From Patescibacteria group bacterium (GTDB taxonomy: Bacteria > Patescibacteriota > UBA1384 > XYA2-FULL-43-10 > 1-14-0-10-43-13): a stretch of 64,000 bases of DNA. This document shows, one piece after another, positions 1,169 through 27,936 of the stretch. The stretch lies in contig JBAYVE010000001.1 of the NCBI GenBank assembly GCA_041674765.1, forward strand, positions 262,177 to 326,176, in the 5' to 3' direction. Made by a program: the position numbers and the translations under genes. Under the pieces are notes generated by a model. That model searched no databases. It had not been told where the DNA came from and saw only the letters and a list, made by a program, of their open reading frames with translations. Numbering within the stretch: the stretch's first letter is position 1; each line of letters opens with the position of its first letter.

Positions 1169-1244
1169 TGGTGGGCCTGGCTGGGTTCGAACCAGCGACC
1201 AATCGGTTATGAGCCGACTGCTCTAACCACTGAGCTACAGGCCC
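1169..1244 (-). tRNA. tRNA-Ile2 (anticodon CAU, lysidine-type) or tRNA-Met
   Basis: The reverse complement folds as a cloverleaf: GGGCCTG-TA-GCTC-AGTGGTTA-GAGC-A-GTCGG-CTCATAA-CCGAT-TGGTC-GCTGG-TTCGAAC-CCAGC-CAGGCCC-A-CCA. The anticodon is CAT. The variable/T region TGGTCGCTGGTTC and the overall sequence closely resemble E. coli ileX (tRNA-Ile2 LAU). tilS is present at 9088. Confidence 0.8.
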
Positions 1245-8614: not shown

Positions 8615-8691
8615 TGGTAGCAGGGGGGAGATTCGAACTCCCGACCCCAGGCTTATGAGTCCTGTGCTCTAACCAACTGAGCTACCCTGCC
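8615..8691 (-). tRNA. tRNA-Met (elongator, anticodon CAU)
   Basis: Reverse complement: GGCAGGG-TA-GCTC-AGTTGGTTA-GAGC-A-CAGGA-CTCATAA-GCCTG-GGGTC-GGGAG-TTCGAAT-CTCCC-CCCTGCT-A-CCA. The GTAGCTCAGTTGGTTAGAGCAC...GGGGTC pattern matches bacterial elongator tRNA-Met. A stem-loop AGGACGC-TAA-GCGTCCT follows the 3' side. Confidence 0.75.
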
Positions 8692-8873: not shown

Positions 8874-8950
8874 TGGTAGCGGGGGTTGGATTTGAACCAA
8901 CGACCTTCTGGTTATGAGCCAGACGAGCTACCGGACTGCTCTACCCCGCA
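8874..8950 (-). tRNA. Initiator tRNA-fMet (anticodon CAU)
   Basis: Reverse complement: TGCGGGG-TA-GAGC-AGTCCGGTA-GCTC-G-TCTGG-CTCATAA-CCAGA-AGGTC-GTTGG-TTCAAAT-CCAAC-CCCCGCT-A-CCA. This is nearly identical in architecture to E. coli tRNA-fMet (CGCGGGG...GGTAGCTCGTCGGGCTCATAACCCGAAGGTCG..GGTTCAAATCC..CCCCGC). Positions 1:72 are unpaired (U:U, where E. coli has C:A), which is the initiator hallmark. Confidence 0.8.
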
Positions 8951-21372: not shown

Positions 21373-21447
21373 GGGCGGTTAGCTCAATGGTAGAGCAGTG
21401 GCCTTTTAAGCCATTGGTTCCGGGTTCGAGTCCCGGGCCGCCTACCA
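21373..21447 (+). tRNA. tRNA-Lys (anticodon UUU)
   Basis: GGGCGGT-TA-GCTC-AATGGTA-GAGC-A-GTGGC-CTTTTAA-GCCAT-TGGTT-CCGGG-TTCGAGT-CCCGG-GCCGCCT-A-CCA. It is followed by an A8/T-rich imperfect stem-loop. Confidence 0.85.
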
Positions 21448-22657: not shown

Positions 22658-23293
22658 CTATCCCCACCACCCCCGTTTTTTTTGATCTTCTGCTCTTAAC
22701 TTTTCCCAGAGTTCTTTTTGTTCTTTCGAAATATGTTTTGGCATTTCGATTGAGATAGTAAGAATGAGATCACCTCGCTTACCATTTTTGTAAGGCCTGC
22801 CCTTCCCCGGAAAACGATATGAGACGCCTGATTGAGTGCCAGCAGGAAGATCGAAAGAGACTTCTTCTCCACCAATTTCAATATTTATTTTATCCCCTAG
22901 GACTGCCTGTGCCGGCGATATCTTTAGCTCTGCTTGAACTTGTGACATGCTGGCGCCAAAAAAATCTTCAAATATGTCTCCAAGCCCGCCGAAGCCCGAG
23001 AAACCACTAAAATCACCTTGACCAAAGCCTGAAAAACCACCTCCGAAACCTTGTCCGTTCCCAAATCCGCCATTCTTGAAGGCAGCATCTCCAAACTGGT
23101 CATATTGTTGTCTTTTTTGCTGATCTGAGAGTATTTGGTAAGCTTCATTTACCTCTTTGAATTTAACCTCATCTTCTTTGCTTCCACCACGATCAGGGTG
23201 GTACTGCAAAGCGAGCTTGCGGTAAGCTTTCTTTATTTCATCAGCGGAGGCATTCTTTGACACCCCCAATATTTTGTAATAATCGGTTGACAT
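22658..23293 (-). CDS. J-domain co-chaperone (short DnaJ-like, no zinc-finger domain)
   Basis: [34 protein letters not shown] (J domain with HPD) followed by a Gly/Phe-rich region ([17 protein letters not shown]) and a C-terminal domain. No CxxCxGxG repeats. Confidence 0.8.
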
Positions 23294-23378
23294 AATAATA
23301 AAGCAATGAGAAATAAGTGGTAAGTAGCAAGCTAAGAATCAAAGCTTACGGCATATTACTTATATCTTATTGCTGATA

Positions 23379-24044
23379 TTATTCCGTAATTTGTTTGCCC
23401 GAGCTGGCATCTAATGTTATCACATAATTACTATTTTGGCCTTTGTATTCCACAACCCAGACCAGCCAGCCTTTTTGAGGAATGGTTTTAAGAGTCAGCC
23501 TCAATTCAAGTAATGTATTTTCTTCTCGCCATTTGAGACCGCCAGCCTTCTCTGCCAGCTGCAGAGCAGTAACATAATTGTATTTCCAGAGTTTGGTATC
23601 GACTGTTGCCAGATTACCGGCATAGTCTTCCTTCGGCACCAGCGCTCGGCTATAGGAATTATCTTTTTGCAGCACCGTAATCATCCAGTTATTCGATGTA
23701 TCATTTGCGGCAGAGAATATATAGCGCAGTGACGTTCGATCGGCTGTCATCGAATCATCAATTGAAACTTCGATTGCCGATAGAGCATTATTTGGGTTTT
23801 GCAGAGTTGCCTTCTCTACTGCCAGTGCATACTGCTGTCTCACGGAAGAGTCAAAATCTGTAGGATCAAGATTGGTCAGATTGGAAACCACCGAAGGGCT
23901 GTAAGCATTGGTATTGATGTTGGTCTGCGTCTGCGCTGTCTTTTTGGCCTCTTGGCGCTTGGAAATAAAATTCCAGCCGAAAGCGATCAAGATCGCAACA
24001 ACAAAGAGAATTAGCACAACAGGTTGACGGAAAAAATTATTCAT
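23379..24044 (-). CDS. Hypothetical membrane-anchored protein (221 aa)
   Basis: RBS AGGAGGGG; N-terminal TM VVLILFVVAILIAFGW; no recognised domain. It sits between dnaK and the dnaJ-like gene. Confidence 0.45.
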   Translation of the reverse strand: MNNFFRQPVVLILFVVAILIAFGWNFISKRQEAKKTAQTQTNINTNAYSPSVVSNLTNLDPTDFDSSVRQQYALAVEKATLQNPNNALSAIEVSIDDSMTADRTSLRYIFSAANDTSNNWMITVLQKDNSYSRALVPKEDYAGNLATVDTKLWKYNYVTALQLAEKAGGLKWREENTLLELRLTLKTIPQKGWLVWVVEYKGQNSNYVITLDASSGKQITE

Positions 24045-24240: not shown

Positions 24241-26133
24241 CTATTTTTCTTCTTCTACCTTTTCGGCTTTTTCTTCCTCTGTCTTCTCGTCTTTTTCTTC
24301 TGTTTTTACCTCTTCTTGTTTAGCTTGGCTTGCCTGCTCGTACATCTTCGCACCGACTTCTTGTAAAGCTTTGCTTAAAGATTCGGTTTGTGTCTTGATC
24401 TCCTCCAGATTGTCTTTGTCTTTCACTTCTTTAAGCGCCTTAATTTTTTCCTCAACGTCGGACTTCAAGTTGCTATCAACTTTATCACCGGCATCACCCA
24501 AGGTTTTTTCAGACGTATAAATCAGAGTATCAGCCATATTTTTGGCTTCGATCAACTCTTTTTTCTGTTTATCTTCGTCGGCGTGCTCTTCGGCTTCCTT
24601 CTTCATTCTCTCAATTTCTGCTTCAGAAAGACCAGACGAGGCAGTAATGGTGATCTTCTGCTCTTTGCTGGTTGCTTTGTCGACGGCCTTTACGTTTACA
24701 ATGCCATTGGCGTCGATATCAAAGGTAACTTCGACTTGAGGCACGCCTCGGGGTGCTGGTGGAATACCGTCGAGCATAAACCGGCCAAGAGTTTTGTTGT
24801 CAGCTGCCATTTCGCGTTCGCCCTGTAAAACGTGGATTTCCACGGAGGTTTGATTGTCGGCTGCTGTTGAGAAAATCTGTGACTTGGAAGTAGGAATTGT
24901 GGTATTTCTTTCAATCAATTTGGTCGAAACGCCTCCAAGTGTCTCGATGCCGAGGGAAAGGGGAGTGACGTCGAGTAAAAGCAAATCTTTGACCTCGCCG
25001 CCGAGAACGCCGCCCTGGATGGCAGCGCCAAGAGCGACAGCCTCATCAGGATTGACAGAGTGATCCGGCTCTTTGCCGAAGAATTTTTTGACGGCTTCTC
25101 GAACTGCCGGCATTCTGGTCATTCCGCCGACTAGAATTACTTCATTGATATCATTTTTTTCAACCTTGGCATCCTTCAAGACCTTTTCGCAAGGTTTCAA
25201 GGTTTTCTCGATCAAAGGCTCTACCATTTTTTCCAGCTGCGCTCGGGAAATGGTCATTTGCAAATGCTTAGGGCCTGATTGATCGGCAGTCACAAATGGC
25301 AAATTAATCTCTGTCTCTTGAGCTGTTGAGAGCTCAATCTTGGCTTTTTCGGCTGCTTCTTTGACGCGTTGGATGGCTGCTTTGTCTGAGTGGAGATCAA
25401 CACCCTGATCCTTTTTAAATTCATCGATAATATAATCCATCACGACCTGATCGAAGTCGTCACCGCCGAGATGAGTATCGCCGTTGGTTGCCTTGACCTC
25501 AAAAACGCCATCGCCAAGTTCCAAAATGGTAATATCAAAGGTACCGCCACCGAGGTCGTAGACAGCAATTTTTTCATTCTTTTTCTTATCAAGACCGTAA
25601 GCGAGTGATGCTGCTGTCGGTTCGTTGATAATTCTTTTGACGTCTAGCCCGGCGATTTTACCGGCATCTTTGGTAGCCTGTCTCTGTGCATCATTGAAAT
25701 AAGCAGGTACAGTAATTACCGCTTCGGTGACTTTTTCGCCGAGATAGGTTTCGGCATCTGCCTTCAATTTTTGCAAAATGAAAGCTGAAATCTCTTGTGC
25801 GCTATAATCCTTGCCGTTCATAATGACTCGAACGGAACCGTCGGAGGCCTTTTTGCTCTCATAAGGCATTTTCTTGAGATCAGCCTGGACTTCAGGATCG
25901 TCAAATTTTCGTCCGATAAATCTCTTGACTGAAAAAATAGTGTTTTCTGAATTCGTTACTGCTTGACGCTTCGATAGTTGTCCGACCAATCTGTCGCCTT
26001 TTTTTGTTTCGGCAACAATTGAAGGAACCGTTCTTCCACCCTCGGAAGAAGTAATAATTTTTGCCTCGCCACCTTCCATCACAGCCACAGCCGAGTTGGT
26101 CGTGCCAAGATCGATACCAACTATTTTACCCAT
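24241..26133 (-). CDS. dnaK: Molecular chaperone DnaK (Hsp70)
   Basis: [26 protein letters not shown] and [13 protein letters not shown], i.e. the full NBD+SBD. The acidic/Lys C-terminal tail ends [11 protein letters not shown]. Confidence 0.97.
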
Positions 26134-26210
26134 TGTGTCTCCTTGAATTATTTTTTAATAATGCTCTCAATCAGTCAAAAGCAACTGACCAAGAAATTAA
26201 TTGTATACTA

Positions 26211-26241
26211 AAAATGTAAAGTATACTTTACATTTTGTCAA
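26211..26241 (-). promoter_or_regulatory. dnaK promoter (TTGACA-17-TACATT on the minus strand) overlapped by a 26 bp perfect palindrome (candidate operator)
   Basis: The minus-strand TTGACA is the reverse complement of 26236..26241. AAAATGTAAAGTATACTTTACATTTT (26211..26236) is a perfect palindrome occupying the spacer and -10 region, about 80-100 nt upstream of the dnaK ATG. It does not match the CIRCE consensus. Confidence 0.45.
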
Positions 26242-26760
26242 GAGGGATATTATTAATATACAGATTTCTTGCTTGCAAACAAATTTGGCTAGTCATAGAA
26301 TTAGCTTAAAACAAGGAGATCATTTGGATATCTATAAGATCGAATTCTTCAAAAAGAGGACTGTTATTCATCTATTAATTCCGCCTGCAATCAGGAAGAC
26401 AAGTCAATTGCCCGGTTTCGCCAAAACTTTGATTTTACAATTGCCAAGATTGAAATATCATCTTTGTGATAACGAGCAGCATCAATCATTTGCCGACGAA
26501 CTAGAGAATACCGAATTGGCTCATGCCTTTGAGCATACATTGATTGACTTGATAAGAGGGATAAAAAGGTCGAAGTAATTAAGGCGGTTACTTCTTGGGA
26601 TTGGTCTAAATATCCAAGAAATTCTTTTCAGATAGAAGTAGAATATTCAAAGAAAGACAATATGTTAAAATCGTTGATGAAAAGCGGAGAAGATAATTAA
26701 GGGATTAATATTGCAAACAACAAAGAAGCAAGGTCAGTCTTTGATTTTAAGAGATTACAT

Positions 26761-26804
26761 ATATTGTTGAATTAATTTGCGATCGCAAATTAATTCAACA
26801 ATAT
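26761..26804. repeat. 44 bp perfect palindrome (copy 1), centred on GCGATCGC
   Basis: ATATTGTTGAATTAATTTGCGATCGCAAATTAATTCAACAATAT reads identically on both strands. The 40 bp core is identical to the copy at 27332..27371. Confidence 0.9.
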
Positions 26805-26879: not shown

Positions 26880-27358
26880 TTATTTATCCCAGCCTCGATC
26901 TTCTTTGCGCATTTCTTCGGTTTCGGTCGGTCTATTATTGTCATCTTCGAGCCTAAAAGTGTTGCCGATCTCAGGAATTGAGGATTCGATGAAAACTATA
27001 TTCGAGACGGCTGTGACTCGATGGATTTGTCCTGGCTGCATAAAATAGCCTTTGTTCAACTCCATCGGAATCTCAATCGTCTGGCCTTTTTCATCAGACA
27101 AAGTTATTTTTGCTTCTCTTCAATCAGGCATAGAGTTTCGATCTTTTCATCATGATATTGCAAGCTTAAGCGTTTGCCGGCATTGACATGCAAAATCTTG
27201 CCGACGGCTGGTGCTTCGGGCGGGGTATAGACAATCTCAAAACCCCAAGGCTTTTCAACTCTTGTTTGAAAGGGAGTTGTGTAATAATGTTTAGGATTAA
27301 AATTGTTGCTCATTGTAATTTCACTTACTGCAATTGTTGAATTAATTTGCGATCGCAA
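26880..27358 (-). pseudogene. Cupin (mannose-6-phosphate-isomerase-like, cupin_2) gene disrupted by a -1 frameshift in an A5 homopolymer
   Basis: The upstream piece (...EKPWGFEIVYTPPEAPAVGKILHVNAGKRLSLQYHDEKIETLCLIEEKQK*) and the downstream piece (LSDEKGQTIEIPMELNKGYFMQPGQIHRVTAVSNIVFIESS...) together form a complete cupin barrel (PWGxE ... LSLQYHxxRxE ... G ... P.G..HR). Adding one A to the run at 27107..27111 restores a single ORF (...QKITLSDEKGQ...). The likely true start is ATG 27313 (MSNNFNPKHYY). Confidence 0.6.
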
Positions 27359-27372
27359 ATTAATTCAACAAT
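27331..27372. repeat. 42 bp perfect palindrome (copy 2)
   Basis: AATTGTTGAATTAATTTGCGATCGCAAATTAATTCAACAATT; lies 20-45 nt upstream of the cupin start on the minus strand. Confidence 0.9.
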
Positions 27373-27465: not shown

Positions 27466-27936
27466 CTATTTCCCCGCCGATACCTTCACTTTGGCAGGCC
27501 TAAGTACTGAGTCATCAAACTTGTATCCACTGGTTAGCTCTTCGACAATTATATCAATAGGTTCGTCACTTTGGATATGTTCAATTGCCTCATGAAGATG
27601 GGGGTTAAATTGCTCTCCGACTGTAGGAATTTTCGAAAGGCCGGAATTTTCCAAGATTGATTCTAGCTGTTTCTCGATCTGCTTAACACCTATAACCCAA
27701 TTATTGCTTTCCAATTCAGTCGGCACGTGTTTGGCGGCTAGTTGAAAGTTATCAAGAACCGGCAGGATTTCCATTATTAGATCGGTGTTGGCTTTTTTAA
27801 TCAGCTTTTTTCTGTCTTCTTCTACCTGGCGGCGGAAATTTTGAAAATCAGCCTGGGTTCGTTGCCAACCTGCAGTTAATTCTCCGATTTTCTGGTTTAA
27901 TTCTTCGATTTGGGGATTCTGTTTTTCTTTTTTCAT
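27466..27936 (-). CDS. grpE: Nucleotide exchange factor GrpE
   Basis: ADFQNFRRQ (GrpE ADFxNxRKR motif), N-terminal coiled-coil, C-terminal beta-domain; 156 aa. Confidence 0.85.
   Translation of the reverse strand: MKKEKQNPQIEELNQKIGELTAGWQRTQADFQNFRRQVEEDRKKLIKKANTDLIMEILPVLDNFQLAAKHVPTELESNNWVIGVKQIEKQLESILENSGLSKIPTVGEQFNPHLHEAIEHIQSDEPIDIIVEELTSGYKFDDSVLRPAKVKVSAGK

Follow-up and report, generated by a model that had tools for sequence, protein, structure and literature searches.

A probable palindromic operator at the dnaK promoter of a Patescibacteria group bacterium and its candidate repressor, an XRE domain fused to a small heat-shock protein

The dnaK promoter and its palindrome

The window analysed here, a stretch of 64,000 nucleotides (64 kb) from contig JBAYVE010000001.1 of a Patescibacteria group bacterium (assembly GCA_041674765.1), carries on its minus strand a dnaK gene (24241-26133) whose promoter is overlapped by a perfect 26-bp palindrome, AAAATGTAAAGTATACTTTACATTTT, at 26211-26236 (no strand). 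The palindrome is proposed to be an operator on the basis of its sequence, a chance test and its conservation in relatives. It is probably the binding site of a dimeric CylR2-like repressor of the XRE family, and the likeliest binder is an autoregulated protein in which an XRE-type helix-turn-helix (HTH) domain is fused to a small heat-shock protein (sHSP) and which would be released on stress; we hold this reading with considerable, though not complete, confidence. The regulated gene encodes a DnaK of 630 aa (Pfam HSP70, E 3.5e-267) that is 100% identical to the DnaK of a metagenome-assembled genome (MAG) named 'Patescibacteria group bacterium' at NCBI. Its next relatives stand at 81-90% identity, and several of these are 'Candidatus Berkelbacteria' MAGs, which places the window in a Berkelbacteria-like bacterium of the Candidate Phyla Radiation.

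The symmetry of the palindrome stops at 26211 and 26236, the next outward pair (26210/26237) being unpaired, and its conserved core occupies 26214-26233 with an 8-4-8 arrangement, ATGTAAAG-TATA-CTTTACAT. The centres of the two half-sites lie 11 bp apart, about one helical turn, which is as expected for a dimeric HTH protein. A promoter scan identified on the minus strand the dnaK promoter TTGACA-17 nt-TACATT, which agrees with the consensus at 10 of 12 positions and has the hexamers and the spacer length (16-18 nt) of a sigma-70-type promoter. Its -35 hexamer lies at 26236-26241 (minus), and in every Berkelbacteria-like dnaK locus exactly 2 nt separate this hexamer from the operator arm; its -10 hexamer lies at 26213-26218 (minus), inside the right arm of the palindrome, an assignment to which leaderless XRE-Hsp20 genes also point. 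The palindrome has 1 nt in common with the -35 hexamer, covers the entire spacer and the -10 hexamer, and extends 2 nt past the latter. An earlier note on this DNA had described a perfect 26-bp palindrome over the spacer and -10 of a TTGACA-N17-TACATT promoter on the minus strand, about 80-100 nt upstream of dnaK, and this description was borne out in each respect, the distance from the palindrome centre to the dnaK start being 90 nt. Since the spacing TACATT-N6-ATG is constant in leaderless fusion genes, the dnaK transcription start can be placed by analogy at A 26206, 7 nt past the -10 hexamer. This leaderless spacing, together with the sequence, predicts a 5' untranslated region of ~73 nt (26134-26206, minus), within which the ribosome-binding site AAGGAG is found at 26139-26144 (minus).

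Perfect palindromes with a half-length of at least 10, and likewise of at least 11, occur at only three places in the window, namely the dnaK operator and the two copies of an unrelated 40-nt palindrome. Shuffled versions of the window (n=50) contained a mean of 0.06 palindromes with a half-length of at least 10 and none of at least 11, and chance is no explanation for the palindrome. Moreover, its 18-mer core has a single occurrence in the window even when up to 3 mismatches are allowed, for an expectation of 0.01. The search for further operator copies in the 64 kb gave, besides the true site, 5 matches with 3-4 mismatches where ~6 are expected, which corresponds to the chance level.

Conservation in relatives and the chaperone regulon

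Nine dnaK loci of relatives were picked solely by DnaK homology at 81-89% identity (L001, L002, L003/L004, L005, L006, L007, L008, and L253). The unit TTGACA-NN-ATGTAAAG-N4-CTTTACAT-T is present upstream of dnaK in all nine (9/9) as well as in the window, within flanking sequences that are unrelated to one another and at a distance from the dnaK ATG that ranges from ~45 to ~240 nt. Both 8-nt operator arms are invariant at these loci, with no compensatory substitutions, whereas the central 4 nt vary (TATA, TCTA, CATA, TTTG, TTTA), as do the two bases between the -35 hexamer and the operator arm (AA, TT, AT). In this comparison, invariant arms combined with a variable centre are the mark of a protein-binding dyad tied to a promoter and not of an RNA or DNA hairpin, and the operator and the promoter are thereby established at the level of sequence.

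The distribution of the element was sampled by two exact-pattern scans. One searched JGI/ENA metagenome contigs for the directional promoter-operator unit TTGACAAAATGTAAAG-N4-CTTTACATT and returned at least 119 contigs; the other, which was blind to proteins, searched one genome per GTDB species for ATGTAAAG-N4-CTTTACAT and returned at least 120 loci from many phyla. Among the 119 metagenome contigs listed, the first gene after the unit is an XRE-Hsp20 fusion gene on 37, dnaK on 35, groES or groES-groEL on 6, grpE on 4, and clpB on 1. A small membrane protein follows on ~27, and the remainder (~9) are mostly ended by the contig edge. Many of the fusion genes on these contigs are leaderless with a constant TACATT-N6-ATG, and this spacing independently identifies TACATT as a functional -10 hexamer, which backs the promoter assignment at dnaK. 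The ~27 membrane-protein loci were rejected as members of the regulon and assigned to a stand-alone XRE module of a non-Patescibacterial lineage; their best protein match is a Sumerlaeota MAG, their GC content is 42-50%, they have no similarity to the window, and where the contigs are long enough a stand-alone XRE gene is usually found downstream.

The same cis element thus stands before several chaperone genes in relatives, by which comparison establishes their membership of a heat-shock regulon; in the window itself it stands before dnaK only. The earlier note had read the site as the possible operator of a heat-shock repressor other than HrcA, and had advised a search for the same palindrome upstream of further chaperone genes and for repressor candidates that co-occur with it. 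Both searches gave positive results in relatives, the former at groES/groEL, grpE, clpB, and the fusion gene, and the latter with the XRE-HTH::Hsp20 fusion, and the proposal gains support from these sequence data.

The XRE-HTH::Hsp20 fusion protein

The fusion was met in the species-genome scan. In a Saccharibacteria MAG, the site lies upstream of a gene for a 249-aa protein (L125) that combines an N-terminal HTH_3 domain (E 6e-15) with a C-terminal HSP20 domain (E 2e-23), and in the same MAG, on a different contig, the site stands before clpB (L119). Another Saccharibacteria MAG has the site before dnaK (L078), and a further Patescibacteria MAG contains an XRE-Hsp20 fusion with the site (L041). 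The best 120 homologues of the fusion all have both domains (120/120) at a length of ~240-265 aa, and several of them come from Berkelbacteria; in the databases they are named at most 'Hsp20 family protein'. A HMMER search over 1.84 billion cluster representatives yielded 39 fusion clusters at 50% identity with E up to 1e-30, nearly all of which are aligned over their full length.

In the alignment of the fusions, the recognition-helix motif S-R-Q-S is invariant and the linker is variable. The nearest solved structures to the HTH are a 65-aa PbsX-family regulator and CylR2, both with E of ~1e-10. The C-terminal 140 residues match small heat-shock proteins (Pfam HSP20, E 1.6e-23; Hsp21, Hsp16.9, and others in PDB, E ~1e-15) and contain the sHSP arm motif EPWRPFRE..LRDAMDRLFED, the alpha-crystallin domain and the tail K-K-I-x-I-K, so that both the domain and the I-x-I-like tail by which a small heat-shock protein is recognised are present. 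The AlphaFold model of the fusion has a five-helix HTH at residues 10-70 (pLDDT ~90) and a beta-sandwich at residues 140-230 (~80), which are joined by a disordered linker.

The operator is found upstream of all four fusion genes that were picked purely by protein homology (L129, L130, L131, and L252), so that its presence on fusion genes is established, by sequence, without recourse to the motif scans. The fusion promoter reads CTTGACAAAATGTAAAGCGTGCTTTACATTTAG at L129 and CTTGACAAAATGTAAAGTTTACTTTACATTTTAG at L130/L131, where the ATG follows after 4 nt. At L252 (2420-2470), the gap between TTGACA and the operator arm is 9 nt instead of 2 nt; a 17-nt spacer would put the -10 hexamer, TATACT, at the palindrome centre, and the operator still overlaps the core promoter, in another register.

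Furthermore, dnaK and the fusion gene both carry the operator in three Berkelbacteria-like genomes. Fusion P0135 and DnaK P0035 are paired by a common longest contig of 200,483 bp, and P0233 and P0120 by one of 175,466 bp, while the fusions of L130/L131 and the dnaK loci L003/L004 come from the same two samples. Taken together, the XRE-Hsp20 fusion is probably an undescribed heat-shock regulator; full-text literature searches found no description of an HTH-Hsp20 fusion or of a heat-shock regulator in the Candidate Phyla Radiation (CPR), an absence that is no proof.

The operator and the CylR2-like XRE family across phyla

Among the matches listed from the species-genome scan, 104 of 125 sites have no open reading frame (ORF) of at least 150 aa spanning them, and such mostly intergenic positions would be unexpected of chance matches in mostly coding genomes. 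ORF clustering and an HTH profile search placed a 60-85 aa XRE/HTH_3 gene within 1.5 kb of the site in 65 of the 120 loci listed, and these proteins have in common the motif V-S-R-Q-T-I-x-x-I-E-x-G-x-Y-x-P-S-L. The XRE start mostly lies 0-30 nt past the palindrome, and other XRE genes lie ~400-600 nt past it, behind a small membrane protein with sub-threshold similarity to DUF2178. With such a gene close by in 65 of the 120 loci listed, the operator can be assigned to the CylR2-like XRE family, a link that sequence comparison establishes, and the palindrome is, on this comparison, the autoregulatory operator of this widespread small XRE subfamily. Outside the arms, the non-streptococcal sites weakly favour A at -1/-2 and T or C as the first base of the centre, which accounts for the extension of the window site to 26 bp.

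In Bacillota, Bacteroidota, Pseudomonadota, Chloroflexota, Spirochaetota, and archaea, ATGTAAAG-N4-CTTTACAT heads two-gene modules, each consisting of a 62-85 aa CylR2-like XRE protein and a 120-150 aa membrane protein that has a (D/E)-E-R motif and sub-threshold similarity to DUF2178 (for example L024, L038, L051, L086, L094, L023, and L063 among the scan loci L009-L128). CylR1 of Enterococcus faecalis contains the same K-D-E-R motif as the membrane proteins of these modules. The XRE/membrane-protein pair is very widespread and apparently uncharacterised, and its operator can now be predicted.

Two groups of loci from the scan are of a different kind. In 12 genomes of the Streptococcus mitis group (L019, L056, L060, L065, L075, L085, L090, L101, L108, L114, L115, and L127), a ParB/Spo0J-like gene with no XRE gene nearby follows the 20-bp core at a distance of 28 nt, and the core is part of a longer palindrome (ACATCT...AGATGT) beside TTGACA. 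These parB sites were set aside as an unrelated, lineage-specific longer palindrome that represents one evolutionary event. In Paceibacteria and relatives (L046, L053, L055, L059, L102, L110, and L116), TATACACAG-N4 is conserved ahead of the core palindrome, and homologous proteins of 170-306 aa with a hydrophobic, signal-like start are encoded downstream; a stand-alone XRE gene is ~560-650 nt away in most of these loci. They look like a different regulon on the same operator in another CPR class.

Neighbouring genes and other features of the window

Two minus-strand genes lie downstream of dnaK. The first (23379-24044) encodes a 221-aa protein whose N-terminal part includes a hydrophobic segment and which belongs to no Pfam family, and the second (22658-23293) encodes a short DnaJ of 211 aa with a J domain and part of the C-terminal domain. 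Both genes (22658-24044) are probably co-transcribed with dnaK. The position of the 221-aa protein between dnaK and the short dnaJ is kept in almost all relatives examined; within the dnaK operon of this lineage, the protein is a conserved component that is still uncharacterised. Upstream of dnaK lies grpE (27466-27936, minus; 156 aa, Pfam GrpE, E 1e-44), and the gene order comEC, grpE, dnaK, ~220-aa protein, and short dnaJ is kept in the dnaK relatives.

In the window, grpE and the dnaK promoter are parted by a block of ~1.3 kb, the grpE-dnaK gap being 190-370 nt in several relatives. The block contains two identical copies of the 40-nt perfect palindrome ATTGTTGAATTAATTTGCGATCGCAAATTAATTCAACAAT (26763-26802 and 27333-27372), which extends to 42-44 nt. 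The copies flank two adjacent minus-strand ORFs (27104-27358 and 26880-27101), neither of which has a Pfam match and which look like one gene broken by a stop or frameshift. ATTGTTGAATTAATTTGCGATCGCAAATTAATTCAACAAT was not found in the first 251 loci fetched, and the pair may mark either end of a small inserted element, or else constitute a second operator. In addition, an 84-aa ORF (26324-26578, plus) that is divergent from dnaK has a TTG start, a ribosome-binding site AAGGAG, and a promoter-like TTGCAA-17-TAGAAT ahead of it (26273-26301). Its match to the Pfam cyanophycin synthase-like N-terminal domain reaches 36.5 bits (cutoff 27), and the ORF gives the impression of an orphan piece of a larger gene.

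Several tRNA genes were also noted. Three tRNA-Met (CAT) genes lie on the minus strand in the first 9 kb of the window (1169-1244, 8615-8691, and 8874-8950), and a tRNA-Lys (TTT) gene at 21373-21447 (plus) lies just past the dnaK-dnaJ cluster and is ~94% identical to sequences at the same position in L001, L005, and L006. Between grpE and dnaK of L001 (3560-3710), a stretch of ~140 nt has a tRNA-like start, GTAGCTCAGAGGCAGAGCA, and a tRNA-like end, GGTTCGAATCGCCACC. ARAGORN called no gene on this stretch, which is possibly a remnant or else a tRNA containing a long insertion.

Comparison with known regulatory systems

The closest characterised counterpart of the HTH, together with the 65-aa PbsX-family regulator, is CylR2, the cytolysin repressor of E. 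faecalis, which is also the best-known representative of this XRE subfamily. The likeness extends to the DNA, where both systems use an AT-rich inverted repeat at a promoter with TGT(A/C)AAG half-sites. On a pAD1-like plasmid, the cyl promoter contains TTTTGTCAAGTG-T-CACTTGACAAAA directly ahead of cylR1, the gene of a small membrane protein, and cylR2 comes next. One base of the half-site differs, TGTCAAG in the cyl promoter versus TGTAAAG in the window, and the spacing is 1 bp wider in cyl (TGTCAAG-N5-CTTGACA) than in the window (TGTAAAG-N4-CTTTACA). The stand-alone homologues further resemble CylR1/CylR2 in being autoregulated and paired with a small membrane protein. The half-site repeat of a CylR2-like operator is present at the window promoter, and the association with a cognate HTH gene is seen in relatives. 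However, the Patescibacteria HTH is fused to a full sHSP and targets chaperone genes rather than a lantibiotic operon, and no quorum-signal logic is evident in the Patescibacteria system.

HrcA, whose activity is coupled to the availability of the chaperone GroEL, likewise acts as a repressor on an inverted repeat, CIRCE, at dnaK and groESL promoters. It belongs to an unrelated protein family, and the sensor proposed here is no separate chaperone, the sHSP being contained in the repressor polypeptide itself. The earlier note was right that CIRCE is absent from the window and that no hrcA gene precedes grpE: TTAGCACTC-N9-GAGTGCTAA has no match in the window at up to 3 mismatches and no exact match in the first 251 loci, and hrcA, which typically opens an hrcA-grpE-dnaK operon, was not found before grpE in the window or in the relatives examined, where a divergent comEC adjoins grpE instead. 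HspR with its HAIR repeat, known from Actinobacteria and Campylobacterota and titrated by DnaK, and CtsR are similar in being autoregulated, promoter-binding repressors of dnaK/clpB-type operons. HspR is of the MerR type and CtsR is a winged-helix protein acting on direct repeats, whereas an XRE domain and an 8-4-8 palindrome are found here; neither the HAIR repeat CTTGAGT-N7-ACTCAAG nor the CtsR heptads RGTCAAA-NAN-RGTCAAA were detected in the window at up to 2 mismatches. The element works like the CIRCE, HAIR, and CtsR boxes, yet it belongs to none of them by any test of membership. With canonical small heat-shock proteins (Hsp20, IbpA, and Hsp16.9), the fusion shares its C-terminal part, including the arm motif and the I-x-I-like tail; it differs from them in its N-terminal domain, which is predicted to bind DNA sequence-specifically.

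Proposed mechanism and alternative explanations

The candidate binder would be a fusion of ~250 aa encoded elsewhere in the genome, composed of an HTH, a disordered linker, and a complete small heat-shock protein. Bound to ATGTAAAG-N4-CTTTACAT, it would fill the spacer and the -10 hexamer, so that RNA polymerase would be blocked and dnaK, and in relatives also grpE, groESL, clpB, and the fusion gene, would be kept low. Repression by occlusion, rather than activation, is suggested because the site covers the spacer and the -10 hexamer, and the fusion, rather than a stand-alone paralogue, is suggested as the binder at the window dnaK because of its autoregulation and its chaperone regulon. Under heat or proteotoxic stress, the sHSP part could be pulled into complexes with unfolded proteins, or its oligomeric state could be changed; this would detach the HTH from the DNA and derepress the regulon. 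By negative autoregulation, more of the chaperone-repressor would be made until its clients are cleared. Such a release would be a cis version of the chaperone titration in HrcA-GroEL, HspR-DnaK, and sigma-32-DnaK. The wider claim, that a large part of the Patescibacteria relies on a single XRE-HTH/sHSP polypeptide as a chaperone and at the same time as the master heat-shock repressor, which would replace HrcA/CIRCE and sigma-32 and sense stress in cis by client binding or temperature-driven re-assembly, could in our judgement equally well prove right or wrong.

Several observations weigh against repression by the fusion. The reading rests on comparison, with binding and heat response predicted and the stress release conjectured. 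Both motif scans used exact patterns, so that their counts are samples and the invariance of the arms within them is true by construction. The full-length AlphaFold model of the fusion has a low overall confidence (pTM 0.36), which is as expected of two mobile domains. Within the window, grpE has no operator copy above the chance level, and the 64 kb contain no chaperone genes besides the dnaK-grpE-dnaJ cluster. An XRE or fusion regulator gene was not found in the window by tblastn with six proteins (best E 0.018), nor does any of the 240 homologues listed lie on a 365-kb contig like the one that encodes the identical DnaK. Finally, Patescibacteria also have stand-alone XRE paralogues whose genes are accompanied by the same core operator (L122, L028, and L117), which makes cross-talk or a different binder at dnaK possible.

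This last point leads to the alternative that the binder is a stand-alone small CylR2-like XRE protein, perhaps with a DUF2178-like membrane partner, and that the fusion gene is only another regulated gene. We regard it as unlikely, while giving weight to the stand-alone XRE genes beside the core palindrome in 65 of the 120 loci listed, those of Patescibacteria (L122, L028, and L117) included, and to the ~27 metagenome loci, among the matches listed, in which the identical promoter-operator unit belongs to modules of a membrane protein and a stand-alone XRE. The membrane-protein class, however, looks non-Patescibacterial, and the HTH of the fusion is of the same family and keeps the recognition-helix motif SRQS-I. 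Moreover, the operator is present on the own promoter of every fusion gene examined, the usual mark of an autoregulated repressor, and a chaperone regulon suits a regulator with a stress-sensing chaperone domain better than it suits a stand-alone XRE protein.

Explanations that dispense with a dedicated regulator appear far less probable. The conserved block could be a strong, lineage-typical housekeeping promoter or an activator site whose symmetry is incidental, given that the -35 and -10 hexamers lie in or beside the palindrome and that part of the conservation is promoter conservation; we consider this very improbable. Promoter spacers are normally not conserved, whereas here the spacer contains the left arm ATGTAAAG, which does not vary and is the mirror image of the right arm, and in other phyla the palindrome occurs without TTGACA beside XRE genes. 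The downstream genes are chaperones rather than general housekeeping genes, and a site over the spacer and the -10 hexamer is in the position of a repressor. It is also conceivable, at the very margin of what we would credit, that the palindrome acts as a nucleic-acid structure, either an RNA hairpin (thermometer or terminator) or a DNA cruciform, and its RNA does fold into an 11-bp hairpin of -8.9 kcal/mol with a z-score of -3.7 against shuffles. The palindrome lies, however, upstream of the inferred transcription start and hence outside the dnaK mRNA, and its arms are conserved in sequence without compensatory change while the loop-equivalent centre is variable; the RNA-hairpin reading was rejected on these two grounds. 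In addition, the stem is AU-rich with no T-run after it, the terminator scan listed no terminator there, and the distance between the palindrome and the start codon varies by ~200 nt. Repression by the XRE-sHSP fusion accordingly remains the reading that we prefer.

Biological implications

Heat-shock control is textbook bacterial regulation, and to our knowledge only a handful of heat-shock systems have been described, namely sigma-32, HrcA/CIRCE, HspR/HAIR, CtsR, and RheA. The Candidate Phyla Radiation makes up a large share of bacterial diversity, and we know of almost nothing about transcriptional regulation within it. Control of heat-shock genes by a repressor and its operator is known; the HTH-sHSP architecture and the CPR regulon are new as far as the literature searches reached and have, at the level of sequence, good comparative support. 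The finding provides a concrete and testable CPR regulon with a defined operator and promoter architecture, which includes leaderless autoregulated genes. The design of the candidate regulator would be unusual in that a single protein would contain the chaperone sensor and the DNA-binding domain, in place of titration by a separate partner. Furthermore, an operator can be assigned to the widespread, mostly uncharacterised XRE regulators of ~65 aa that are paired with small membrane proteins, and the name 'Hsp20 family protein' probably conceals transcription factors in hundreds of database entries.

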